From Acetobacteraceae bacterium (GTDB lineage: Bacteria; Pseudomonadota; Alphaproteobacteria; Acetobacterales; Acetobacteraceae): a stretch of 64,000 nucleotides of DNA. Below, piece after piece: positions 28,776 through 36,750 of the stretch. The notes under the pieces were generated by a model. It was not told where the DNA came from. It was given only the letters and a program-made list of their open reading frames with translations, and made no database searches. The first letter of the stretch is position 1. The number at the start of each line of letters is the position of its first letter. The stretch is from positions 15,535 to 79,534 of the forward strand of contig DATLQW010000184.1 in assembly GCA_035535035.1 (NCBI GenBank). Reading direction: 5' to 3'. A program made the translations under genes and the position numbers.

Positions 28776-31067
28776 CTAATGCTCTCCTGGCTTCTTCGCC
28801 TCACGTGCGGCGGGTGCCGGATGCGGCGCCGGGGCGGCGTGCACCTGCGGCCGCGGAGCGGCGTGCATCTGCGGTGCGGGAGCATGCACCTGCGGCCGCG
28901 GGACGGCATGCATCTGCGGTGCGGGAGCATGCACCTGCGGCCGCGGGGCGACATGCATCTGCGGTGCGGGAGCATGCACCTGCGGCCGCGGGGCGGCATG
29001 CACCTGCGGCCGCGGGGCGGCATGCATCTGCGGTGCCGGGGCATGCACCTGCGGCCGTGGGGCAGCATGCATCTGCGGTGCAGGAGCATGCACCTGCGGC
29101 AGTGGGGCGACATGCATCTGCGGTGCAGGAGCATGCACCTGTGGCCGTGGAACGGCATGCGTCTGCGGCGCGGGATAATGCACCTGCGGCAGTGGGGCGG
29201 TACGCAGCGCCGTGGGCGCCCGCGGCGCCGGGGCCGTCACCGCCCGTGGCTCGACGCGCGGAAGCACTGGACGTTCGACAGGTCGCGGCGGGGCAACGGT
29301 CGGATGCACGACTTGCGGTTCGGCAGGCCGGAGCGGTGCGGTTGGCCCGGGACGCAGGGAACCGGCTGGCGCCAATCCTGGCCGCACTGCCCCGGTTGAG
29401 GTCGCCCCGTGCGTCACGGCCTCCCGGCCCGGCGCGGCGTGCACGATCGGCGGCGGAGCACCTTCGCGCCCGGCTGGGGTGCGCAGTATCGGCATCGCCG
29501 CTGGCGGTGGCACAACGCCCGGCCGCGCGCCGCCATGCTCCGGCGCGACGCCCGGGCGCCCGGCGGCATGGCGCAGCGTCGGCCGCGCGGCGACACCTTG
29601 TGCCGGGACGGCATGGATCGCCGGACCTGGCGCCGCGCGTGGCACCGCGGCGACCCCGGCCGGCGCCGGCGCCAGGTGCATCTGCCGCGCCAGCCGCGGC
29701 GTGATCCCGGCGGTTGCGGCGGTCGGGCGGATCGGCGACGTCCCGATCACCGGCCGCGCTGTTGCGAGCATCCGCGGATCGACCCGCTCCGCGACCTGGC
29801 GCACCGGGCGCGATGCCGCCATCGCACTCGCCGGTACCACAGTCGCCGCGCCACGGTTCACGAAGTTGTTGATGGTGACGTTGCGGTTGTTGATCACGGT
29901 GACATTGGTGACGTCGCGCCGGTTGACCGCGCGCAGATAGGCCTCCGAGCTGTGGTACCATGGATGGTAAGCCTCGCGCGGGCCGAGCGGGACCCAGCCG
30001 ACACGGCCGGAGGCAAGTGCCTCCCCGATGCCGACCCCCACGCCGATCCCGATAAAGGCCACCAGTGCGGGCGCATAGACCGGCGGTCCGGCGACCGCCA
30101 CCACGCCGGGGGTCCAGCCCCAGCGGCCGCGAACCTCGAGCCAGCGTCCGTAATGGAACGGCGCGAAGCCCCACGGGGCATCGTCCACCCAGGTCCAGCC
30201 CCACGGGCGAACATAGGCCCAGCGGCCCTCGCGATACGGCATCCAGCCGGGAGCGACCTGCGGATACCAGACATCGCCGTAATCACTCGTCTGCGACCAT
30301 GTGCCGTAAGCGGAGAGGTCATCGCCGCCCGGCATCTGCGCCACCACCGGCGGCGGGGCGTTGGCCGGCGCGGATGGCGGGCGCTCGGCCCGCAGCATGG
30401 CGGTCAGGAACCCATCCATCCGGGCTGGCCCGACGCTGACCTCGAACGTGTCCGTCCCGGTGATCGTGGCGGTCTGGCCCGGCCCCACCTGGAGCGACAG
30501 TCCGGGACCCGTGACCTGCGCAACGCCATCCAGCACCGTGACGAGGGTCGGATCTTGCGTGTCGCCGGCCGCGACGTCATAGCGGCCCGCACCGGAAATG
30601 GTCACCAGCCCGCGCGGTGTCTGCACCGACCAGGTTTCGCCCGGCGTGAGGTCGCGCAGGCGCAAATAGATCTCGCCCTGCGGCACGGTCGCCTGCAGCC
30701 CGCCGGCATCGAGCGTGCCGACGTCGAGTTCGGTGCCACCGGCAAGCGCGATGCGGCTGTCGGAGACCACGATGCGCGCCGAGGCGTCCGGTTCGGTCCA
30801 GAAGGCGTCGCCGGATGCGACCGGGTAGTTCATCCCGGCCGGGCTCCACTGGTCCGCGTCCGCCGTGTGGAAAGAGACGGCACCAGCGATCTGCGCCAGC
30901 CATCCGGCCCGTTCCGGCGGGTTGCCGGCCTCCTGGCCAGGCACGGCCGGTGCCGCGCCTGGCGGCACCGGTTGCGCCAGGGCGGCCTGGGGCATGACCT
31001 GTGCCAGCATCAGCCCGGCGACAGCCGTGGCGGCGCTCAGGCGGAAGACCAGGGAGTGCGGGCGCAT
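28776..31067 (-). CDS. secreted FecR-domain / DUF6600-like protein with Pro-rich tandem-repeat C-terminus
   Basis: 763-aa ORF with a signal peptide. WxPxxxxxGWxPYxxGxW-type motifs (WMPYREGRWAYVRPWGWTWVDDAPWGFAPFHYGRW). C-terminal PQVHAPAPQMHAAPR repeats. Confidence 0.7.
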   Translation of the reverse strand: MRPHSLVFRLSAATAVAGLMLAQVMPQAALAQPVPPGAAPAVPGQEAGNPPERAGWLAQIAGAVSFHTADADQWSPAGMNYPVASGDAFWTEPDASARIVVSDSRIALAGGTELDVGTLDAGGLQATVPQGEIYLRLRDLTPGETWSVQTPRGLVTISGAGRYDVAAGDTQDPTLVTVLDGVAQVTGPGLSLQVGPGQTATITGTDTFEVSVGPARMDGFLTAMLRAERPPSAPANAPPPVVAQMPGGDDLSAYGTWSQTSDYGDVWYPQVAPGWMPYREGRWAYVRPWGWTWVDDAPWGFAPFHYGRWLEVRGRWGWTPGVVAVAGPPVYAPALVAFIGIGVGVGIGEALASGRVGWVPLGPREAYHPWYHSSEAYLRAVNRRDVTNVTVINNRNVTINNFVNRGAATVVPASAMAASRPVRQVAERVDPRMLATARPVIGTSPIRPTAATAGITPRLARQMHLAPAPAGVAAVPRAAPGPAIHAVPAQGVAARPTLRHAAGRPGVAPEHGGARPGVVPPPAAMPILRTPAGREGAPPPIVHAAPGREAVTHGATSTGAVRPGLAPAGSLRPGPTAPLRPAEPQVVHPTVAPPRPVERPVLPRVEPRAVTAPAPRAPTALRTAPLPQVHYPAPQTHAVPRPQVHAPAPQMHVAPLPQVHAPAPQMHAAPRPQVHAPAPQMHAAPRPQVHAAPRPQVHAPAPQMHVAPRPQVHAPAPQMHAVPRPQVHAPAPQMHAAPRPQVHAAPAPHPAPAAREAKKPGEH

Positions 31068-31251: not shown

Positions 31252-31533
31252 ATGACCCGAACCCACCCGTACTCCTTCCGCAGAGTGGCGCTGCACTCCT
31301 TCCGCAGAGTGGCGCTGCCGGCTGTCGCCATGCTTGGCATCGCCGCGCTGCTGGGCGGCTGCGTCGCTTACCCCGCGTATCCGGGCTACGGCTATTATGG
31401 TCCTGGATATGGATACCCGGCCGGCGGATACGTCACGTTCGGCGGCAGCGGAGGCTGGGGCGACCACGACTGGCACGGCGGCGATTGGCACGGCGGCGAT
31501 TGGCACGGCGGGGGTGGCGGCTGGCATCGCTGA
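31252..31533 (+). CDS. small Gly/Tyr/His/Trp-rich lipoprotein
   Basis: AGGAGG RBS and lipobox LLGGC. The C-terminus is GDHDWHGGDWHGGDWHGGGGGWHR. Confidence 0.6.
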   Translation: MTRTHPYSFRRVALHSFRRVALPAVAMLGIAALLGGCVAYPAYPGYGYYGPGYGYPAGGYVTFGGSGGWGDHDWHGGDWHGGDWHGGGGGWHR

Positions 31534-31594: not shown

Positions 31595-32788
31595 CTACAA
31601 GCCGGCCTGGTGCAGCCGCAGGATCGCCCGCGCGCAGGCCTGCGCGCGGGGAATCAGGCTGGCGACAAGCAGGAACTCGTCCGGGCTGTGCGCCTTGCCG
31701 CCGACCGGGCCGACCGCGCAGAGCGTCGGCGCCCCGGCGGCGGCGGTAAACCCCGAATCCGCGCAACCGCCGGTGAACTCGCCATCGGTGGCGAATCCGG
31801 TGTCGGCGGCGGCCCCGACATAAAGTTCGAACAGCTTCCGGGCGGACGGGCTCTGCGTCAACGGCAGGAACTCGCCGCGCACGGTCAGCTCCGACCTGGT
31901 GCCCGGCAGGAAGCTGCGCTCGACGATGGCGCCGATGCGCGCCATGACATCGTCCTTGTCGGGCGGGTCCACGTAGCGCAGGTCGATCTGACCTTCCGCC
32001 CAGGGCGCCACGGTGTTGACGCTCTGTCCGCCGCTGACCAGCCCGACATTCAGCGTGACGCCGCGTTCCAGGTCCGTCAGCGCGTGGACCGCCTGCACCT
32101 TGCGCGCCAGCTCCTCGATGGCGGAGACGCCGTCGGCGAAATTCGCCCCGGAATGCGCCGCCTTGCCGGTGACCCGGAAACTCATGAAGACGCCGCCCTT
32201 GCGCCCGGTGACGACGTTGCCGGAGACGCGGCCGGGCTCGCTGTTGAACACCGCGCGGGCATGGCGGGCCTCGGCCTCGATCGCCGCGCGGCCTTCCGGG
32301 CTGCCGATCTCCTCGTCGCCGGTGAACAGCCCGACCAGCGGGGCCGGCGCGCCGCCGCAATGGGCGAAGGCGGCCAGGACGAAGCAGTTCATCACCAGCC
32401 CGGCCTTCATGTCGGCGACGCCGGGGCCGTAGGCGATTCCGTCGCGAATGGTGAACGGGCGGCGCGTCGCCTCGCCGTCGGGAAACACGGTGTCGCGATG
32501 GCCCATCAGCACGACGTTGCCGCCGGCATTGCCGGCCGGGCCGTCCCAGGGGACCGCCGCGCGCAGGCAGTCGCCGTGCTTCGGTTGGCGGATGGTCTCC
32601 ACCGGGATGCCGTGCGCCGCCAGGAATCGCCGGATCACGGCGCCGACTGCGTCAATGCCCGGCTTGTTGTAGCTGCCGCTGTCGGTATCGACCATGTCCC
32701 GCAACATGGCGAGCATGGCTTCCTGCCGCGTCGCAAGCCAGGCGGCGATCTGTGATTCGGTTGCCATTGGGGAGCCTCCGAGCGGCAC
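31595..32788 (-). CDS. M20-family metallopeptidase (carboxypeptidase G2-like)
   Basis: LMGHRDTVFP and GPGVADMKAG metal-ligand motifs. Confidence 0.8.
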   Translation of the reverse strand: MPLGGSPMATESQIAAWLATRQEAMLAMLRDMVDTDSGSYNKPGIDAVGAVIRRFLAAHGIPVETIRQPKHGDCLRAAVPWDGPAGNAGGNVVLMGHRDTVFPDGEATRRPFTIRDGIAYGPGVADMKAGLVMNCFVLAAFAHCGGAPAPLVGLFTGDEEIGSPEGRAAIEAEARHARAVFNSEPGRVSGNVVTGRKGGVFMSFRVTGKAAHSGANFADGVSAIEELARKVQAVHALTDLERGVTLNVGLVSGGQSVNTVAPWAEGQIDLRYVDPPDKDDVMARIGAIVERSFLPGTRSELTVRGEFLPLTQSPSARKLFELYVGAAADTGFATDGEFTGGCADSGFTAAAGAPTLCAVGPVGGKAHSPDEFLLVASLIPRAQACARAILRLHQAGL

Positions 32789-33208
32789 TGGAAGTTAAGT
32801 TTGGCGGCAGCCACTGGCCTCCGTCGGTTGGGTAGCCGCCGCGACAACCCCGGCCGCCACGCCGGCCGTCTGATGACCTGATCCGGATGCCGCCTCGTCC
32901 GGCGCGTTTTCAGGCGGCGGCGATTGAACCGGTTTCAAATTGGAGGCCCGAGCCAACCGGCAGGGCAATGGCTAAGCAGGACGCCATCAATCTCAAGAAA
33001 CAAAACGCCACCCAACAATTGCGACCTTTCCAGATCTAAGAGACCCCCACTTCATCCATCAGTACGAATTTCACGAATTGACGGCAAGGTAACGTTAAAT
33101 CAACGATAAAAAATCCTCAATATGGAAATATCGGCGTCACGTTGATGCGAGGGATAATCGTCCCCGCACTGAAACACAATCGAGACAATCGAAGGAAGGG
33201 TCGGACCT

Positions 33209-33625
33209 ATGCTTCTCTCATCCTCTGCCAGCCTTGCGCTTATCGCTGACACCGGCAAGGTCCGTCTCGGCGGCTGCGCCCCGACCCTCGCCACTGCCGA
33301 TGCCGGCAAGGTCCGTCTCGGCGGCTGCGCCCCGACCCTCGCCACTGCCGATGCCGGCAAGGTCCGTCTCGGCGGCTGCGCCCCGACCCTCGCCACCGCC
33401 GATGCCGGCAAGGTCCGTCTCGGCGGCTGCGCTCCGACCCTCGCCACTGCCGATGCCGGCAAGGTCCGTCTCGGCGGCTGCGCCCCGACCCTCGCCACCG
33501 CCGATGCCGGCAAGGTCCGCCTCGGCGGCTGCGCTCCGACCCTCGCCACTGCCGATGCCGGCAAGGTTCGTCTCGGCGGCTGCGCCCCGACGCTGCCGGC
33601 CGGTCGGAAGGCTGCCATCCACTAA
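33209..33625 (+). CDS. tandem-repeat peptide: 12-aa head + 7 x 17-aa ADAGKVRLGGCAPTLAT units
   Basis: GGAAGGG lies 8 nt before the ATG, with an AT-rich upstream region. All inter-repeat substitutions are synonymous third-position changes. Codon usage is typical for this genome, unlike the antisense ORF. Confidence 0.6.
   Translation: MLLSSSASLALIADTGKVRLGGCAPTLATADAGKVRLGGCAPTLATADAGKVRLGGCAPTLATADAGKVRLGGCAPTLATADAGKVRLGGCAPTLATADAGKVRLGGCAPTLATADAGKVRLGGCAPTLPAGRKAAIH
33245..33601 (+). repeat. seven tandem 51-bp repeats
   Basis: Hand alignment with unit GCCGATGCCGGCAAGGTCCGTCTCGGCGGCTGCGCCCCGACCCTCGCCACT. The first and last units are slightly divergent. Confidence 0.9.
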
Positions 33626-33789
33626 AGACGACGCCCGATCAACCCTGTTAGACTGGATGCGTGCCGGGCGGGAATACTGCCCGGCTTCTGCCGTTGCTTC
33701 ACTCAGCACCAGGATCAGCACCCTTGTCCACCACTGCCTCGATCTCGCCGGAAGCCGCGCAGGCAACGCCCCGGAAGTCGCCGCTTGTC

Positions 33790-34536
33790 GTGTTCCATCG
33801 CGTAACACCGTCGGGACGCCTGCCGCAGCGGGCGGATCGCTCCGCGGCGGGATCGCTGCCAACCCGCGCCTTCCGTTATTGCGAGCCTTCGACCAGCGCA
33901 TCCGGCTATGGCTATTACATCTTCCCGCCGATCAGCTTCAGCCTGAAATGGGACGGCCACGACATCATGTGGACCTTTGACGGGGCGTCCGGCTGGATGC
34001 CGTTGAAGTCGGCGCAGTTTCCCGGGTTTCGCGACCTGTTCGACTCGGTCGCGCCCAAGGAAATCCAGCAATATGCGCCGCCCTTCCTGGTCGCCCTTCA
34101 AGAGGCCGGATTGGTTCAGATCTGGACCGGCATCATCGCCCGCACCGCACCGGGTTGGAGCCTGATGGTCCGAGCGCCGGCAAATTTGCCGCATCGTGGC
34201 GGCTATGAGCCGTTCGAGGGGATCATCGAGACCGACCACTGGTTCGGCCCGTTGATCACCAACATACGTCTGACCAAGACCGACGTGCCGATCGACTTTT
34301 ATGCTGATTTCCCCATGCTGCAGGTGCAGCCGCTGCCACGCCAGGCATACGACGACGCAATGCTCAACAATTACGAATTGGTGCCCGACCTCCGGCAGCT
34401 CACGCCCGAGGACTGGGACGACTATTACGACACAGTGGTGCGTCCGCACGTGCAGGAGGCGCGGCCGCGCGGCCAATACGCCGCCGCCGCCCGTAAGCGC
34501 CGAGCCGCCGAGGCGGACGGCAAGCCGACGGAGTGA
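33790..34536 (+). CDS. DUF6065-like protein (start GTG 33790, or GTG 33661)
   Basis: AFRYCEPSTSASGYGYYIFPPISFSLKWDG resembles the conserved N-terminal core recalled for DUF6065. The 33661 start would lie inside the hairpin that follows the repeat gene. Confidence 0.6.
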   Translation: MFHRVTPSGRLPQRADRSAAGSLPTRAFRYCEPSTSASGYGYYIFPPISFSLKWDGHDIMWTFDGASGWMPLKSAQFPGFRDLFDSVAPKEIQQYAPPFLVALQEAGLVQIWTGIIARTAPGWSLMVRAPANLPHRGGYEPFEGIIETDHWFGPLITNIRLTKTDVPIDFYADFPMLQVQPLPRQAYDDAMLNNYELVPDLRQLTPEDWDDYYDTVVRPHVQEARPRGQYAAAARKRRAAEADGKPTE

Positions 34537-34596: not shown

Positions 34597-36750
34597 CTAG
34601 GAGACGCCGCGCAACTCGTGGGACCCGATACGCGGCGCAACCTTCGCGTCCCGCTCCGGCACGCCCGCCAGCCGCAAGCCTTCCGCAAAGAGCTCGCGGT
34701 CAACCTCGCGCTGCAACGGAGTCGTTGCGAGGAACCTATCCACGGTGAAATCGGGCTCCAGCGCAAGCAGCCGCTGCCGGATGATGGCCGCCTCCTGGGT
34801 CCGGCCAGTATGACCGAGCGCCGCGAGATACAGCCTGTGGCTTGCCGCGAACGACGGATTCATCTCGCTCACCGTGCGGCCAACGGCCACCGCGGACTCG
34901 AAATCCCGCTTCAGCAGATGGATGTAGATGAAGAACGTATCGTAGAAGAAGGCGTGCGGATCGAGCGGCGAAAGCTTCTTGTAGTGATTGTTGCGGCGCT
35001 CGGCCTCTTCGGGTTCGCCCAGATAGGCATAGGCACAGGCTGAGAGCGCCCACGCCATCGCCATGTTCGGATTGAGCGACAACGCCCGCTCGTGCAGGCT
35101 GATGGCCTCGCGCAGCCGATGATGCAGGAAGGCGCGGACATGCCCGGCAACGGCAAGACCGCGGGCATCGAACGGATCGAGTACGATCGCGCGTTCCGCC
35201 AGCGTCCCTGCCTGTTCGATCATCGCACGGGGATTGTCCGCCCAGCCCTCGCCCACCAGAAACACATGCCAGTAGGCATACCAGGCATATGCGGCGGCGT
35301 AGTCGGGTTCCAGTTGGATGGCGTGCGCCAGATGCTCGCCGGCCTGCATGAACGGCGCGCGCTCCATCCGCCACATCAGCGGAATGGCGCGCAGCACGAG
35401 GTCGTAGGCGGTGGAGTCCACCGGCGGTCGCGACGCGCTGCGGCGCGCCTCGATCAGCAGGATCTCGGGGTCAATCTGCGCCACCACTTCCGCGGCGATC
35501 TCGTCTTGCAGCGTCAGCAGGTCATTGGTCTGGCGATCGAACCGGCGCGCCCAGACCACCTGGTTGCCGGCGCGCAGATCGAGCAGCCGGACGGTGATGC
35601 GCAAGCGGTTGCGCGCGCGCTGGATCGAGCCGTCCACCAGGAAGTCGATGCCGAAGGTGCGGCGGATCGCCCCCTCGTCGCGGGTGTCGGCGGCGAAGCG
35701 GGCGAGCGAGCTGGAGGCAACGACGAACATCCAGCGAAAGCGGGACAGAGCAGTGGTGATTTCCTCCGCCAGCCCGGGCGCGAGATGCGACTCCTCCTCC
35801 GAGGCGCCGGGGAATTGCAGCGGCAGCACCCCGACATGAGCGCCGCCGCGCGCATTGCGCAGTTCCTGCCGCGGCTCGAGCACGGCCACCGGTTCGTCCT
35901 GCTCCAGCTCCAGCGGCCGAGCGGGCGGTAGCGGCACTGCCTCGGCCAGCGGGGGCGGGGACGACCGAACCGGTATGCGGCTGCCATAGGGGCCGCGGAT
36001 TTCCGCCAGCAGCTTCTGGGTTTCCTGCGACGGCGCGGCGTCGAGCAGGTCGGCCAGCACGGCTCGGCAGCGGTCGTAGGCCTGGATCGCCATGCCGCGC
36101 TCGCCGCGCGCGACATGCGCCCGCATCAGCGCCCGCCAGGCGCCCTCATGCGCGCGGTCGATCTGCAACAGGCGCTGCGCCGCCGGGATCGCCGATTCCG
36201 GCTCGCTGGATTCGCGCAACAGCGCCTCGGCGACGTTGCGAGCGCGGTCGCGCAGGCGCTCGCGTTCGGTGGTGAGCCAGGCGTCGAAGGTCGGGTCGAT
36301 GCCGTCCAGGTCCTCCAGCAGGTCGCCATCCAGCAGCGACAGCGACGCCGGCTGGTCGGTGGTGGCCCGCATCACCTCGTCAACATCCACCCAGACCGCG
36401 CTGGAGCGCAGCGACAGGTGGTCGCGGGTGACCTGCATGATCTCTCCCCCGGCGGGGGACAGCGTTTCCAACAGGCGATGGATTTCCTGGCGCAGTGAGG
36501 CGCGCGCCTGCTCCTCGGGGCGGCGGCTCCAGAGCAATTCGGCGAGCCGGCCGCGCAAGGCGGGGCGCGGGGCGGAGAGCGCGACGACTGCGAGAAGGGC
36601 GCGGGTCTTGCGTCCGGCAGGCAGCACGTTCTCGCTGGTGATCGTCCAGGCTTCCATCTGGCCGATAAGGCGCAACCGTAGCACCACCTGTCCGGAGGGG
36701 GGGGACTGCGGGGCCGGGCCTGGGGACCTTGTTGTCGTGCCTGCCATCAT
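34597..36750 (-). CDS. winged-helix + BTAD (SARP-like) transcriptional regulator with C-terminal TPR domain
   Basis: 717-aa ORF. N-terminal OmpR/SARP-like LRLIGQMEAW...RKTRALLAVVAL, then BTAD (AWRALMRAHVARGERGMAIQAYDRCRAVLADLL), then TPR-like C-terminal third. Confidence 0.8.
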   Translation of the reverse strand: MMAGTTTRSPGPAPQSPPSGQVVLRLRLIGQMEAWTITSENVLPAGRKTRALLAVVALSAPRPALRGRLAELLWSRRPEEQARASLRQEIHRLLETLSPAGGEIMQVTRDHLSLRSSAVWVDVDEVMRATTDQPASLSLLDGDLLEDLDGIDPTFDAWLTTERERLRDRARNVAEALLRESSEPESAIPAAQRLLQIDRAHEGAWRALMRAHVARGERGMAIQAYDRCRAVLADLLDAAPSQETQKLLAEIRGPYGSRIPVRSSPPPLAEAVPLPPARPLELEQDEPVAVLEPRQELRNARGGAHVGVLPLQFPGASEEESHLAPGLAEEITTALSRFRWMFVVASSSLARFAADTRDEGAIRRTFGIDFLVDGSIQRARNRLRITVRLLDLRAGNQVVWARRFDRQTNDLLTLQDEIAAEVVAQIDPEILLIEARRSASRPPVDSTAYDLVLRAIPLMWRMERAPFMQAGEHLAHAIQLEPDYAAAYAWYAYWHVFLVGEGWADNPRAMIEQAGTLAERAIVLDPFDARGLAVAGHVRAFLHHRLREAISLHERALSLNPNMAMAWALSACAYAYLGEPEEAERRNNHYKKLSPLDPHAFFYDTFFIYIHLLKRDFESAVAVGRTVSEMNPSFAASHRLYLAALGHTGRTQEAAIIRQRLLALEPDFTVDRFLATTPLQREVDRELFAEGLRLAGVPERDAKVAPRIGSHELRGVS

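Follow-up and report, generated by a model that had tools for sequence, protein, structure and literature searches.

What does a gene made almost entirely of one short repeated peptide do beside a gene of the uncharacterised DUF6065 family? The question is raised by a 64 000-nucleotide stretch of contig DATLQW010000184.1 from an Acetobacteraceae bacterium (hereafter the window), in which a plus-strand open reading frame (ORF) of seven near-identical 17-residue units is followed on the same strand by a DUF6065 gene and then, convergently, by the gene of a SARP-type regulator that ends in a TPR domain. An initial annotation, made from these letters by themselves, proposed either seven identical core peptides or a thiol-based metal or redox repeat protein and treated the regulator as a flanking gene. 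Comparison of related loci shows that one residue of the repeated unit and a few positions of the TPR domain change together between species. Because the TPR groove co-evolves with the peptide in this way, the reading moves away from a natural-product cassette and closer to a circuit of peptide and receptor. The coordinates of the features are collected in Table 1.

The repeat peptide and its variable residue

The plus-strand ORF translates as MLLSSSASLALI, seven copies of A-D-A/T-G-K-V-R-L-G-G-C-A-P-T-L-A-T and a tail. The repeat and ORF anatomy first described is borne out by this translation and by Tandem Repeats Finder, which gives a period of 51 nt repeated 6.7 times over 33252-33591, at 96% matches and without indels. 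The eight silent differences listed earlier among the units (ACT/ACC and GCC/GCT, twice each, and CGT/CGC, GTC/GTT, ACC/ACG and CTC/CTG) are all present and all fall on codon position 3. Unit 1 has two further differences, GCT/GAC (silent) and ACC for GCC, the latter being the A/T change, and the 3′ end of unit 7 diverges from the other units. The ribosome-binding sequence GGAAGGG stands where it had been placed, and a Shine–Dalgarno sequence of the form (A)AGGAAGGG is kept at the same position in most loci. An exact-sequence look-up of the window's peptide returned no record.

The product has 69 homologues, all short hypothetical proteins of one repeated motif, D-[AST]-x-K-V-R-[LIM]-G-[GA]-x-[AS]-P-x-[LF], from Acetobacteraceae, Rhodocyclaceae and Lysobacteraceae assemblies. 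The unit is 17 or 18 residues long across the family, and conservation covers the spacer D-A-x-K-V-R-L-G-G and, in the core, A-P and L. The window's unit divides accordingly into a spacer, A-D-A-G-K-V-R-L-G-G, and a core, C-A-P-T-L-A-T. The residue right after G-G, for which the symbol x is used alone from here on and which is Cys in the window, is the one variable and least conserved position: in 70 loci it is Phe in 477 units, Tyr in 165, Cys in 121, Met in 70, Leu in 27 and Val in 16. Inside an array x is uniform (67 of 70 loci), yet it differs between close relatives, with switches between Cys and Met among closely related loci; Cys is therefore not essential, and the arrays evolve in concert.

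The ORF ends 6–9 residues past a G-G in every lineage (gamma, beta and alpha). The ends read ...GG-QGPVFR* in the gamma-like variants, ...GG-CAPSLPR* in Rhodocyclaceae, and ...GG-xAPTLPPAR* in Acetobacteraceae, and ...GG-CAPVLAA* is a further example; 46 of 70 loci have Arg as the final residue. This placement puts the start of a core at x, and we infer that each core begins there and that the preceding spacer would serve as a recognition and cleavage element. The gamma and beta variants have just 3–4 units with clear alternation of spacer and core. The alternation and the position of the ORF end fit, in all lineages, the multi-core precursor suggested at the outset.

Some arrays are split over two or three reading frames (L010, L020, L021, L060, L064, L065, L072, L074, L086 and others, and the proteins P0106 and P0007). 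The splits occur mostly in long-read assemblies and the motif is intact past each shift, so that indel errors are likely; they lead gene callers to wrong-frame products or to fusions with DUF6065. Out-of-frame arrays had been named among the observations that would tell against the gene. They exist, and the motif continues intact in the new frame; no contrary observation of the kinds then named was found. In the Rhodocyclaceae locus L094 (1-4151) a three-unit precursor mixes Asn and Cys at x, and a 77-residue ORF and a gene with an XRE-type helix–turn–helix domain follow DUF6065.

Covariation of the regulator with the peptide

Pfam assigns the regulator a BTAD domain (3.2e-14), TPR_19 (5.5e-10) and, weakly, Trans_reg_C (0.075), confirming, with the match of the M20 peptidase on the other side, both flanking genes as first identified. 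By phmmer against the Protein Data Bank (PDB), its residues 7-247 match AfsR (8hvr, E = 2e-4), EmbR (2fez) is also found, and residues 461-667 match canonical TPR proteins (OGT and designed TPRs). The same search, over all PDB sequences, gave no match to an RRNPP receptor, and inspection by eye revealed no membrane segment or signal in the regulator.

The covariation analysis comprised 32 loci with a full-length regulator and 203 variable columns. Ranked by mutual information with x, the top four columns are 609, 605, 608 and 572 (1.82-1.47 bits); the next column reaches 1.22, against a median of 0.58. At position 605 the residue goes with x in 31 of 32 loci, x removes 96% of the entropy there, and none of 20000 shuffles reached the observed value. 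It is Ala where x is Phe (9/9), Gly where x is Tyr (10/10) and Thr where x is Cys (8/8), Met (2/2) or Val (1/1); of the two Leu loci, one has Thr and the other Gly. The window's regulator carries Cys572, Thr605, Ile608 and Tyr609, matching its Cys-type peptide, and the out-of-sample locus L004, also of Cys type, has Thr605 as predicted.

Control trees were built without columns 572, 605, 608 and 609. On those of the N-terminal part, of the C-terminal part and of residues 555-640 only, x switches 12, 10 and 9 times, respectively; over the control trees as a whole the range is 9-13. The columns that x explains best (572; 602-611; 640-648) follow one another at intervals of about 34 residues, the spacing that a single face of successive TPR repeats would show. 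The switches on all control trees and the periodicity of the columns make shared ancestry or block recombination an unlikely source of the signal. Recombination of the peptide gene together with the TPR block was rejected as an explanation in particular, since x still switches at least nine times on the 555-640 tree and only a few, periodic columns are affected. The simplest reading of these comparisons is that the TPR groove binds the peptide and that x is the specificity residue. The SARP-like identity first given to the regulator thus stands, but its role as a mere flank does not.

In the window's clade, Cys-type peptides are paired with Cys572 (window 35035-35037; L009, L010, L014 and L015), which amounts to five of eight Cys-type loci; ligand and receptor might be linked by a disulfide or share a metal. 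A single metagenome-assembled genome (MAG), DATKPQ01, holds two cassettes, L011 and L014, with the same flanks (M20, regulator and GCS2) and with 19 Met units and six Cys units, respectively. The receptor differences between the two match their peptide types; the cassettes may belong to two strains that were placed in one bin, or a recent duplication may have been accompanied by a change of specificity.

The DUF6065 protein

The next gene was correctly assigned to DUF6065. It matches PF19541 with 55.1 bits against a cut-off of 26.6 bits, over profile positions 75-168 of 236, which marks a divergent subfamily. Its family thus holds as annotated, but probably not its start at 33790: 270-residue homologues point to TTG 33724 as the likely start codon.

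A shallow alignment (72-94% identity) gave a model with a predicted local distance difference test score (pLDDT) of 58 and weak dUTPase matches only. The final AlphaFold2 model, from a diverse alignment of 72 sequences at 31-49% identity, has a pLDDT of 94.3 and a predicted template-modelling (TM) score of 0.87. Foldseek against the PDB returned 89 matches at E <= 1e-3; trimeric dUTPases fill the top 50 places, with probability 1.00, target-normalized TM scores of up to 0.76 and 10-12% identity. As modelled, the fold is dUTPase-like with N- and C-terminal extensions. The search rules out the cupin- or dioxygenase-like fold that had been expected. Two DUF6065 profiles run by hmmsearch against the PDB found no dUTPase. 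An hhalign comparison with E. coli Dut (its sequence verified as PF00692) was not significant (E = 0.12) and paired motif III only (E-G-I-I-E-T-D-x-W-x-G-P-L); with no match at the sequence level, the relationship is one of fold alone. The residues conserved in the family are Cys53 (97%), Asn154 (99%), Gln132 (93%), Trp231 and Tyr252 (94%) and an acidic cluster, E165/E169/D171.

DUF6065 also follows the peptide, more weakly than the regulator columns do. Its residue 123 tracks x with complementary size in 64 of 71 loci: among the 53 loci where x is Phe or Tyr, 48 have Gly there, and among the 18 where x is Cys, Met, Leu or Val, 16 have Val, Ser or Ala. Several of the co-changes are independent, as between L011 (Met/Ser) and L014 (Cys/Val), at 93% identity. 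DUF6065 thus appears to contact the unit directly at x.

Divergent members of the family occur in other peptide contexts. One adjoins an MvdD-type ATP-grasp gene, a 74-residue ORF and an ABC exporter (L089, 1563-3641), another immediately follows the gene of a full-length LanB dehydratase, no LanC being in view (L092, 2710-6756), and a third lies near a radical-SAM/SPASM gene (L093, 5992-8557). These neighbourhoods suggest that the family is tied to peptide maturation in general, and it may be a general accessory of peptides made on ribosomes and modified after translation (RiPPs).

Conservation of the cassette

The window's DUF6065 has relatives in 231 species-level genomes, and almost all of the best 80 are from Acetobacteraceae, Rhodopila or Acidisphaera MAGs. 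With D-A-[SGAT]-K in the array motif, 62 of the 65 DUF6065 loci with at least 700 nt upstream carry at least two units on the DUF6065 strand, and none carries units on the opposite strand. The median number of units per ORF is 14 and the maximum 34; across species the range is 3 to 34. In the reverse direction, all 11 contexts reached from peptide homologues have the peptide gene followed by DUF6065 on the same strand. Even a DUF6065 of 38% identity (L090) is preceded by a repeat ORF, with the divergent unit V-x-L-G-A-K-A-S-P-A-S-M-Q-D. The recurrent linkage that the initial annotation had asked about is therefore borne out. In the three exceptions (L024-L026) DUF6065 is intact, the array is lost and TldD lies directly upstream; L025 keeps the remnant A-Q-V-R-L-G-A-F-E-P. 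L088 and L091 were too short to inform.

About 42 of 87 loci, the distant L001 and L006 among them, have a regulator homologue beside the cassette. In the betaproteobacterial locus L094 it is divergent and upstream of the peptide gene, so that the adjacency survives rearrangement.

Only six close loci, those of the window's own clade, have the M20 gene upstream, and it is an uncertain member of the module. Of 58 other loci (L012-L087), 53 have a protease gene of the PmbA/TldD family, TldD, upstream of the peptide gene. Since TldD is found neither in the window's clade nor in distant lineages, it is treated as synteny and as a possible helper at most. A peptidase thus lies beside the cassette in both the TldD and the M20 cases, which may matter for processing or be synteny only. 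Peptide-binding SBP_bac_5 genes were found near L001 and L089.

Regulatory DNA

The region upstream of the peptide gene (32990-33208) has a GC content of 45%, compared with 67% for the window, and is thus AT-rich as described; a consensus scan found no sigma-70 promoter. The region contains an operator-like element of two direct repeats; 47 of 51 loci have this element, with the consensus TAACGTCAAAAnAACGATAA[AT]AAATCC, at a distance of 111-143 nt (median 117) upstream of the ATG. The element occurs once in the 64-kb window, with none expected by chance. Direct repeats with 11-nt spacing are a type of site known for OmpR- and SARP-type regulators, and the regulator may act at this putative operator.

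The hairpin that had been noted after the peptide stop codon folds stably, and about 70 loci have an equivalent there with differing stem sequences, at a median of -24.6 kcal/mol and in some cases with T-runs. The hairpin was not called in a consensus scan for terminators; it is probably a partial terminator or attenuator. Rfam gave no real match in the leader or intergenic regions.

A proposed peptide-and-receptor model

The reading that we favour, with a probability of roughly one half on the comparative evidence, is that the locus encodes a multi-copy propeptide, its maturation protein DUF6065 and a cognate SARP–TPR receptor that probably feeds back on the operon. Each unit would consist of a spacer or recognition sequence, D-A-G-K-V-R-L-G-G, and a short core from x onwards (here C-A-P-T-L...). 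DUF6065 would bind the V-R-L-G-G-x junction and mature the units, most likely by cleavage at G-G|x through its near-invariant Cys53, with another modification possible. The released core peptide, either back from outside or staying in the cell throughout, would bind the concave groove of the TPR domain, where x would give specificity, and the ligand-bound regulator would act on the 11-nt direct repeats 5′ of the peptide gene, making the operon self-regulating. The hairpin would keep transcripts of the peptide gene in excess over those of DUF6065, the repeat number would set how many peptides each translation yields, and switches of x with matching receptor changes would create distinct specificity types.

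A bolder form of this model is put forward only tentatively, as something less than probable. The locus would then be the first genetically encoded peptide-pheromone/receptor system native to Pseudomonadota, with a tandem multi-copy propeptide cut or modified by the dUTPase-fold DUF6065, itself a new class of maturation enzyme for peptides, and its product sensed by a SARP-type TPR receptor. The Phe, Tyr, Cys, Met and Leu types would evolve fast and be private channels among soil and peat Acetobacteraceae, and DUF6065 would also serve lanthipeptide-, graspetide- and radical-SAM-type clusters.

Several points weigh against the favoured model. The related loci come nearly all from MAGs, and all of the support is comparative. 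No protease signature is recognizable in DUF6065 and no conserved His is available to partner Cys53; given also the nucleotide-hydrolase fold, proteolysis by this protein would be a guess. The precursor heads (12-22 residues) show by eye no obvious export signal and no positively charged N-region, and no exporter, Opp/re-import, immunity or further tailoring genes are conserved across the neighbourhoods; signalling outside the cell is thus unsupported. Only about half of the loci have the regulator next door, the operator-like element is also present in loci without an adjacent regulator, and residue 123 of DUF6065 departs from its rule in seven of 71 loci. The covariation itself, read as matched specificity, would fit a released peptide and an intact repeat protein alike.

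Alternative explanations

The main alternative, which we consider unlikely, is that the repeat protein stays uncut and is an intracellular multivalent partner, both of the TPR domain (as an anti- or co-activator) and of a presumably trimeric DUF6065 that would compete for, modify or sequester the same epitope in a partner-switching circuit. DUF6065 and the regulator both co-vary with x, so that both appear to read one epitope. The missing protease signature, exporter and export signal and the highly variable repeat number are as such a circuit would have them, and dUTPase-fold proteins, typically trimers, include some that bind regulators, such as the Dut–Stl complexes among the fold matches. 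However, an ORF that stops after a minimal core in every lineage is predicted for a cleaved precursor and not for a scaffold, the 3-4-unit gamma and beta variants alternate spacer and core clearly, and divergent DUF6065 proteins occur in classical peptide-maturation clusters.

It is rather improbable that the locus makes a conventional exported RiPP (antimicrobial, metal-binding or similar), with DUF6065 modifying the cores and the SARP-type regulator a plain pathway activator as in actinomycete clusters. A multi-core precursor, an enzyme family found in RiPP clusters, an attenuator hairpin, an adjoining SARP-type activator and a TldD or M20 peptidase gene upstream in most loci would all be at home in such a pathway, but its activator would have no reason to switch TPR-groove residues with a side chain of the product. 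Exporter, immunity and further tailoring genes are, moreover, not conserved, and a core residue that ranges over Phe, Tyr, Cys, Met, Leu and Val argues against a chemistry built around that side chain.

A thiol-based metal or redox repeat protein with one Cys per unit, suggested initially by the seven Cys residues in identical G-G-C-A-P contexts and paralleled by the Cys at regulator position 572 in the window's clade, is very improbable: the Cys site is the least conserved of the unit, in the order F > Y > C > M > L > V, and exchanges Cys for Met among close loci. In view of this variability of x, a Cys-centred function is rejected.

It remains to place the gene on its strand. The antisense ORF 33100..33618 shares the wobble positions, as the initial annotation rightly cautioned, and its repeats are likewise identical as protein; the window by itself cannot decide the strand, and the cross-species data do. 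The 33-nt block K-V-R-L-G-G-x-A-P-T-L was compared in 69 loci. Between species, the entropy at codon positions 1, 2 and 3 of the plus frame is 2.1, 1.5 and 10.8, and within arrays 1320 differences fall on position 3, 140 on position 1 and 28 on position 2. The ratio of silent to non-silent differences within arrays is 1347/141 in the plus frame and 1009/382 in the antisense frame; the units were picked with the plus-frame motif, which inflates the identity figures of that frame and leaves the stop-codon and periodicity results unaffected. Stop codons interrupt the antisense frame of the block in 12 of 69 loci and the plus frame in none. The codon-usage score is 0.58 for the plus frame and 0.39 for the antisense frame, which agrees with the poorer antisense usage reported earlier. 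By the codon-position and stop-codon tests, 33209..33625 is a real protein-coding gene under purifying selection, as first proposed, and is predicted to be translated as a polyprotein of seven units. The chance that the array is a neutral non-coding tandem repeat, or that the antisense ORF, which is open in the window with protein-identical repeats, is the real gene, is close to nil, since the three-base periodicity, the silent excess and the antisense stops rule out both, the units never lie on the strand opposite DUF6065, the placement of Shine–Dalgarno sequence, start and stop is conserved, and antisense codon usage is the poorer.

Comparison with known systems

Both the logic of a peptide read by a TPR receptor and the multi-core precursor are already known; here they are built from unrelated parts. 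The locus resembles the RRNPP systems (Rap–Phr, NprR–NprX, PlcR–PapR, PrgX, Rgg–SHP and AimR–AimP) in that a small propeptide gene adjoins that of a cytoplasmic receptor with a TPR-type domain and an output domain, that receptor groove and peptide residues diversify together into specificity types and that the regulator is predicted to control the propeptide gene. It differs in its receptor, a SARP-type protein of winged-helix, BTAD and TPR domains with canonical 34-residue TPRs and no RRNPP sequence match; in its propeptide, a tandem array of 3-34 copies with no Sec-type signal; in co-encoding a dedicated dUTPase-fold protein; in that export and re-import are not evident; and in its hosts, which are Pseudomonadota. 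Peptide/TPR signalling has been treated as a trait of Bacillota, and the signals of Pseudomonadota have been described as small molecules (PMC10075063).

Several identical or near-identical cores split by recognition or cleavage spacers, in copy numbers that vary between species, are shared with multi-core RiPP precursors (microviridin and cyanobactin) and with other repeat propeptides, among them yeast alpha-factor and the fungal repeat peptides processed by Kex2. In contrast, the arrays here reach far more copies (up to 34), the sole co-encoded candidate enzyme is DUF6065 and not an ATP-grasp enzyme, a PatA/G protease or Kex2, the apparent target is an intracellular regulator, and the peptide is not known to be modified. 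For microviridin, the processing of a multi-core precursor has been described (PMC5934393).

Among SARPs, whose large forms include a TPR domain, the regulator is like AfsR and EmbR in its N-terminal 250 residues, its BTAD domain and the 11-nt direct repeat at its presumed target promoter, and unlike them in having no NB-ARC/ATPase module and a proteobacterial host. To our knowledge, ligand-like co-evolution of a TPR domain with a neighbouring peptide gene has not been described for SARPs.

Compared with trimeric dUTPases and dCTP deaminases, DUF6065 keeps by eye counterparts of motifs III (EGIIETD-W-GPL), IV (P-L-Q) and V (R-G-x-Y). Unlike the trimeric dUTPases, to which it is 10-12% identical with no profile-level match, it lacks by eye the motif I Asp, has about 60 extra N-terminal residues with the near-invariant Cys and a helical C-terminal extension, and occurs in a genomic context of peptides and not of nucleotide metabolism.

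The invariant G-G before each presumed core recalls the double-glycine leaders of C39 systems, and the head and spacer of the first unit, which together make about 22 residues up to the G-G, look like a short leader. Unlike such leaders, the spacer does not match by eye the consensus L-S-x-x-E-L-x-x-I-x-G-G, and G-G recurs internally before every core. No C39 peptidase-domain transporter was found in any neighbourhood examined.

Full-text literature searches on DUF6065, the KVRLGG motif, a link between dUTPase-like proteins and RiPPs, multi-core RiPPs or RRNPP systems in Proteobacteria, and a peptide ligand of BTAD/TPR proteins returned no description of such a system, within the limits of the literature searched, outside which such papers may exist. 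If the peptide is a signal, it would change the view that TPR-read peptide signals are a Gram-positive hallmark and that Gram-negative bacteria use small molecules. The module is widespread in Acetobacteraceae and extends to Rhodocyclaceae- and Lysobacteraceae-like bacteria. With this model the TPR domain of a SARP-type regulator would for the first time have a proposed ligand. The model also gives the DUF6065 family, with about 825 sequence clusters, a role that can be tested, and suggests that a nucleotide-hydrolase fold was recruited to peptide maturation in several RiPP classes. The matched residues (x with 605, 609, 608 and 572) would be a ready-made specificity code that synthetic peptides could test.

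Table 1. Features of the locus, with positions numbered from the first letter of the window
Feature	Position	Strand	Basis or remark
Divergent M20 metallopeptidase	31595..32788	-	Pfam Peptidase_M20 5.5e-26
Operator-like element, two 11-nt direct repeats (AACGTTAAATC / AACGATAAAAA) then ATCCTCAA	33091..33120	+	117 nt upstream of peptide start codon
Shine–Dalgarno sequence GGAAGGG	33194-33200	+	8 nt before propeptide ATG; read directly
Candidate multi-copy propeptide gene, 138 aa	33209..33625	+	12-aa head, seven 17-aa units, short tail
Seven 17-aa units of the candidate propeptide	33245-33601	+	ORF translation
GC-rich hairpin, 9-bp stem, between peptide gene and DUF6065	33663..33685	+	-22.6 kcal/mol, z = -3.1
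DUF6065 protein, 270 aa from TTG 33724	33724..34536	+	PF19541 E = 1e-14; ORF open from GTG 33661
SARP-type regulator, 717 aa, convergent: OmpR-like winged helix, BTAD, TolB_N-like region, TPR	34597..36750	-	Pfam and phmmer
Regulator segment, residues 572-648, putative specificity positions 572, 605, 608, 609 (and 602, 611, 640, 648)	34807..35037	-	

Other repeats in the window

A second coding tandem repeat lies at 28822-29200, with periods of 24, 45, 114 and 159 nt. It encodes repeats of the P-Q-V-H-A-P-A-P-Q-M-H-A-A type in the C-terminal part of a 763-residue DUF6600 protein (28776..31067, minus strand). A candidate ORF of 93 residues (31252..31533, plus strand), which overlaps other ORFs, combines a lipobox-like L-L-G-G-C with a stretch rich in Gly and Tyr and with three G-G-D-W-H repeats; it contains a 15-nt repeat (31467-31511) and a perfect 24-nt duplication (31271-31318).

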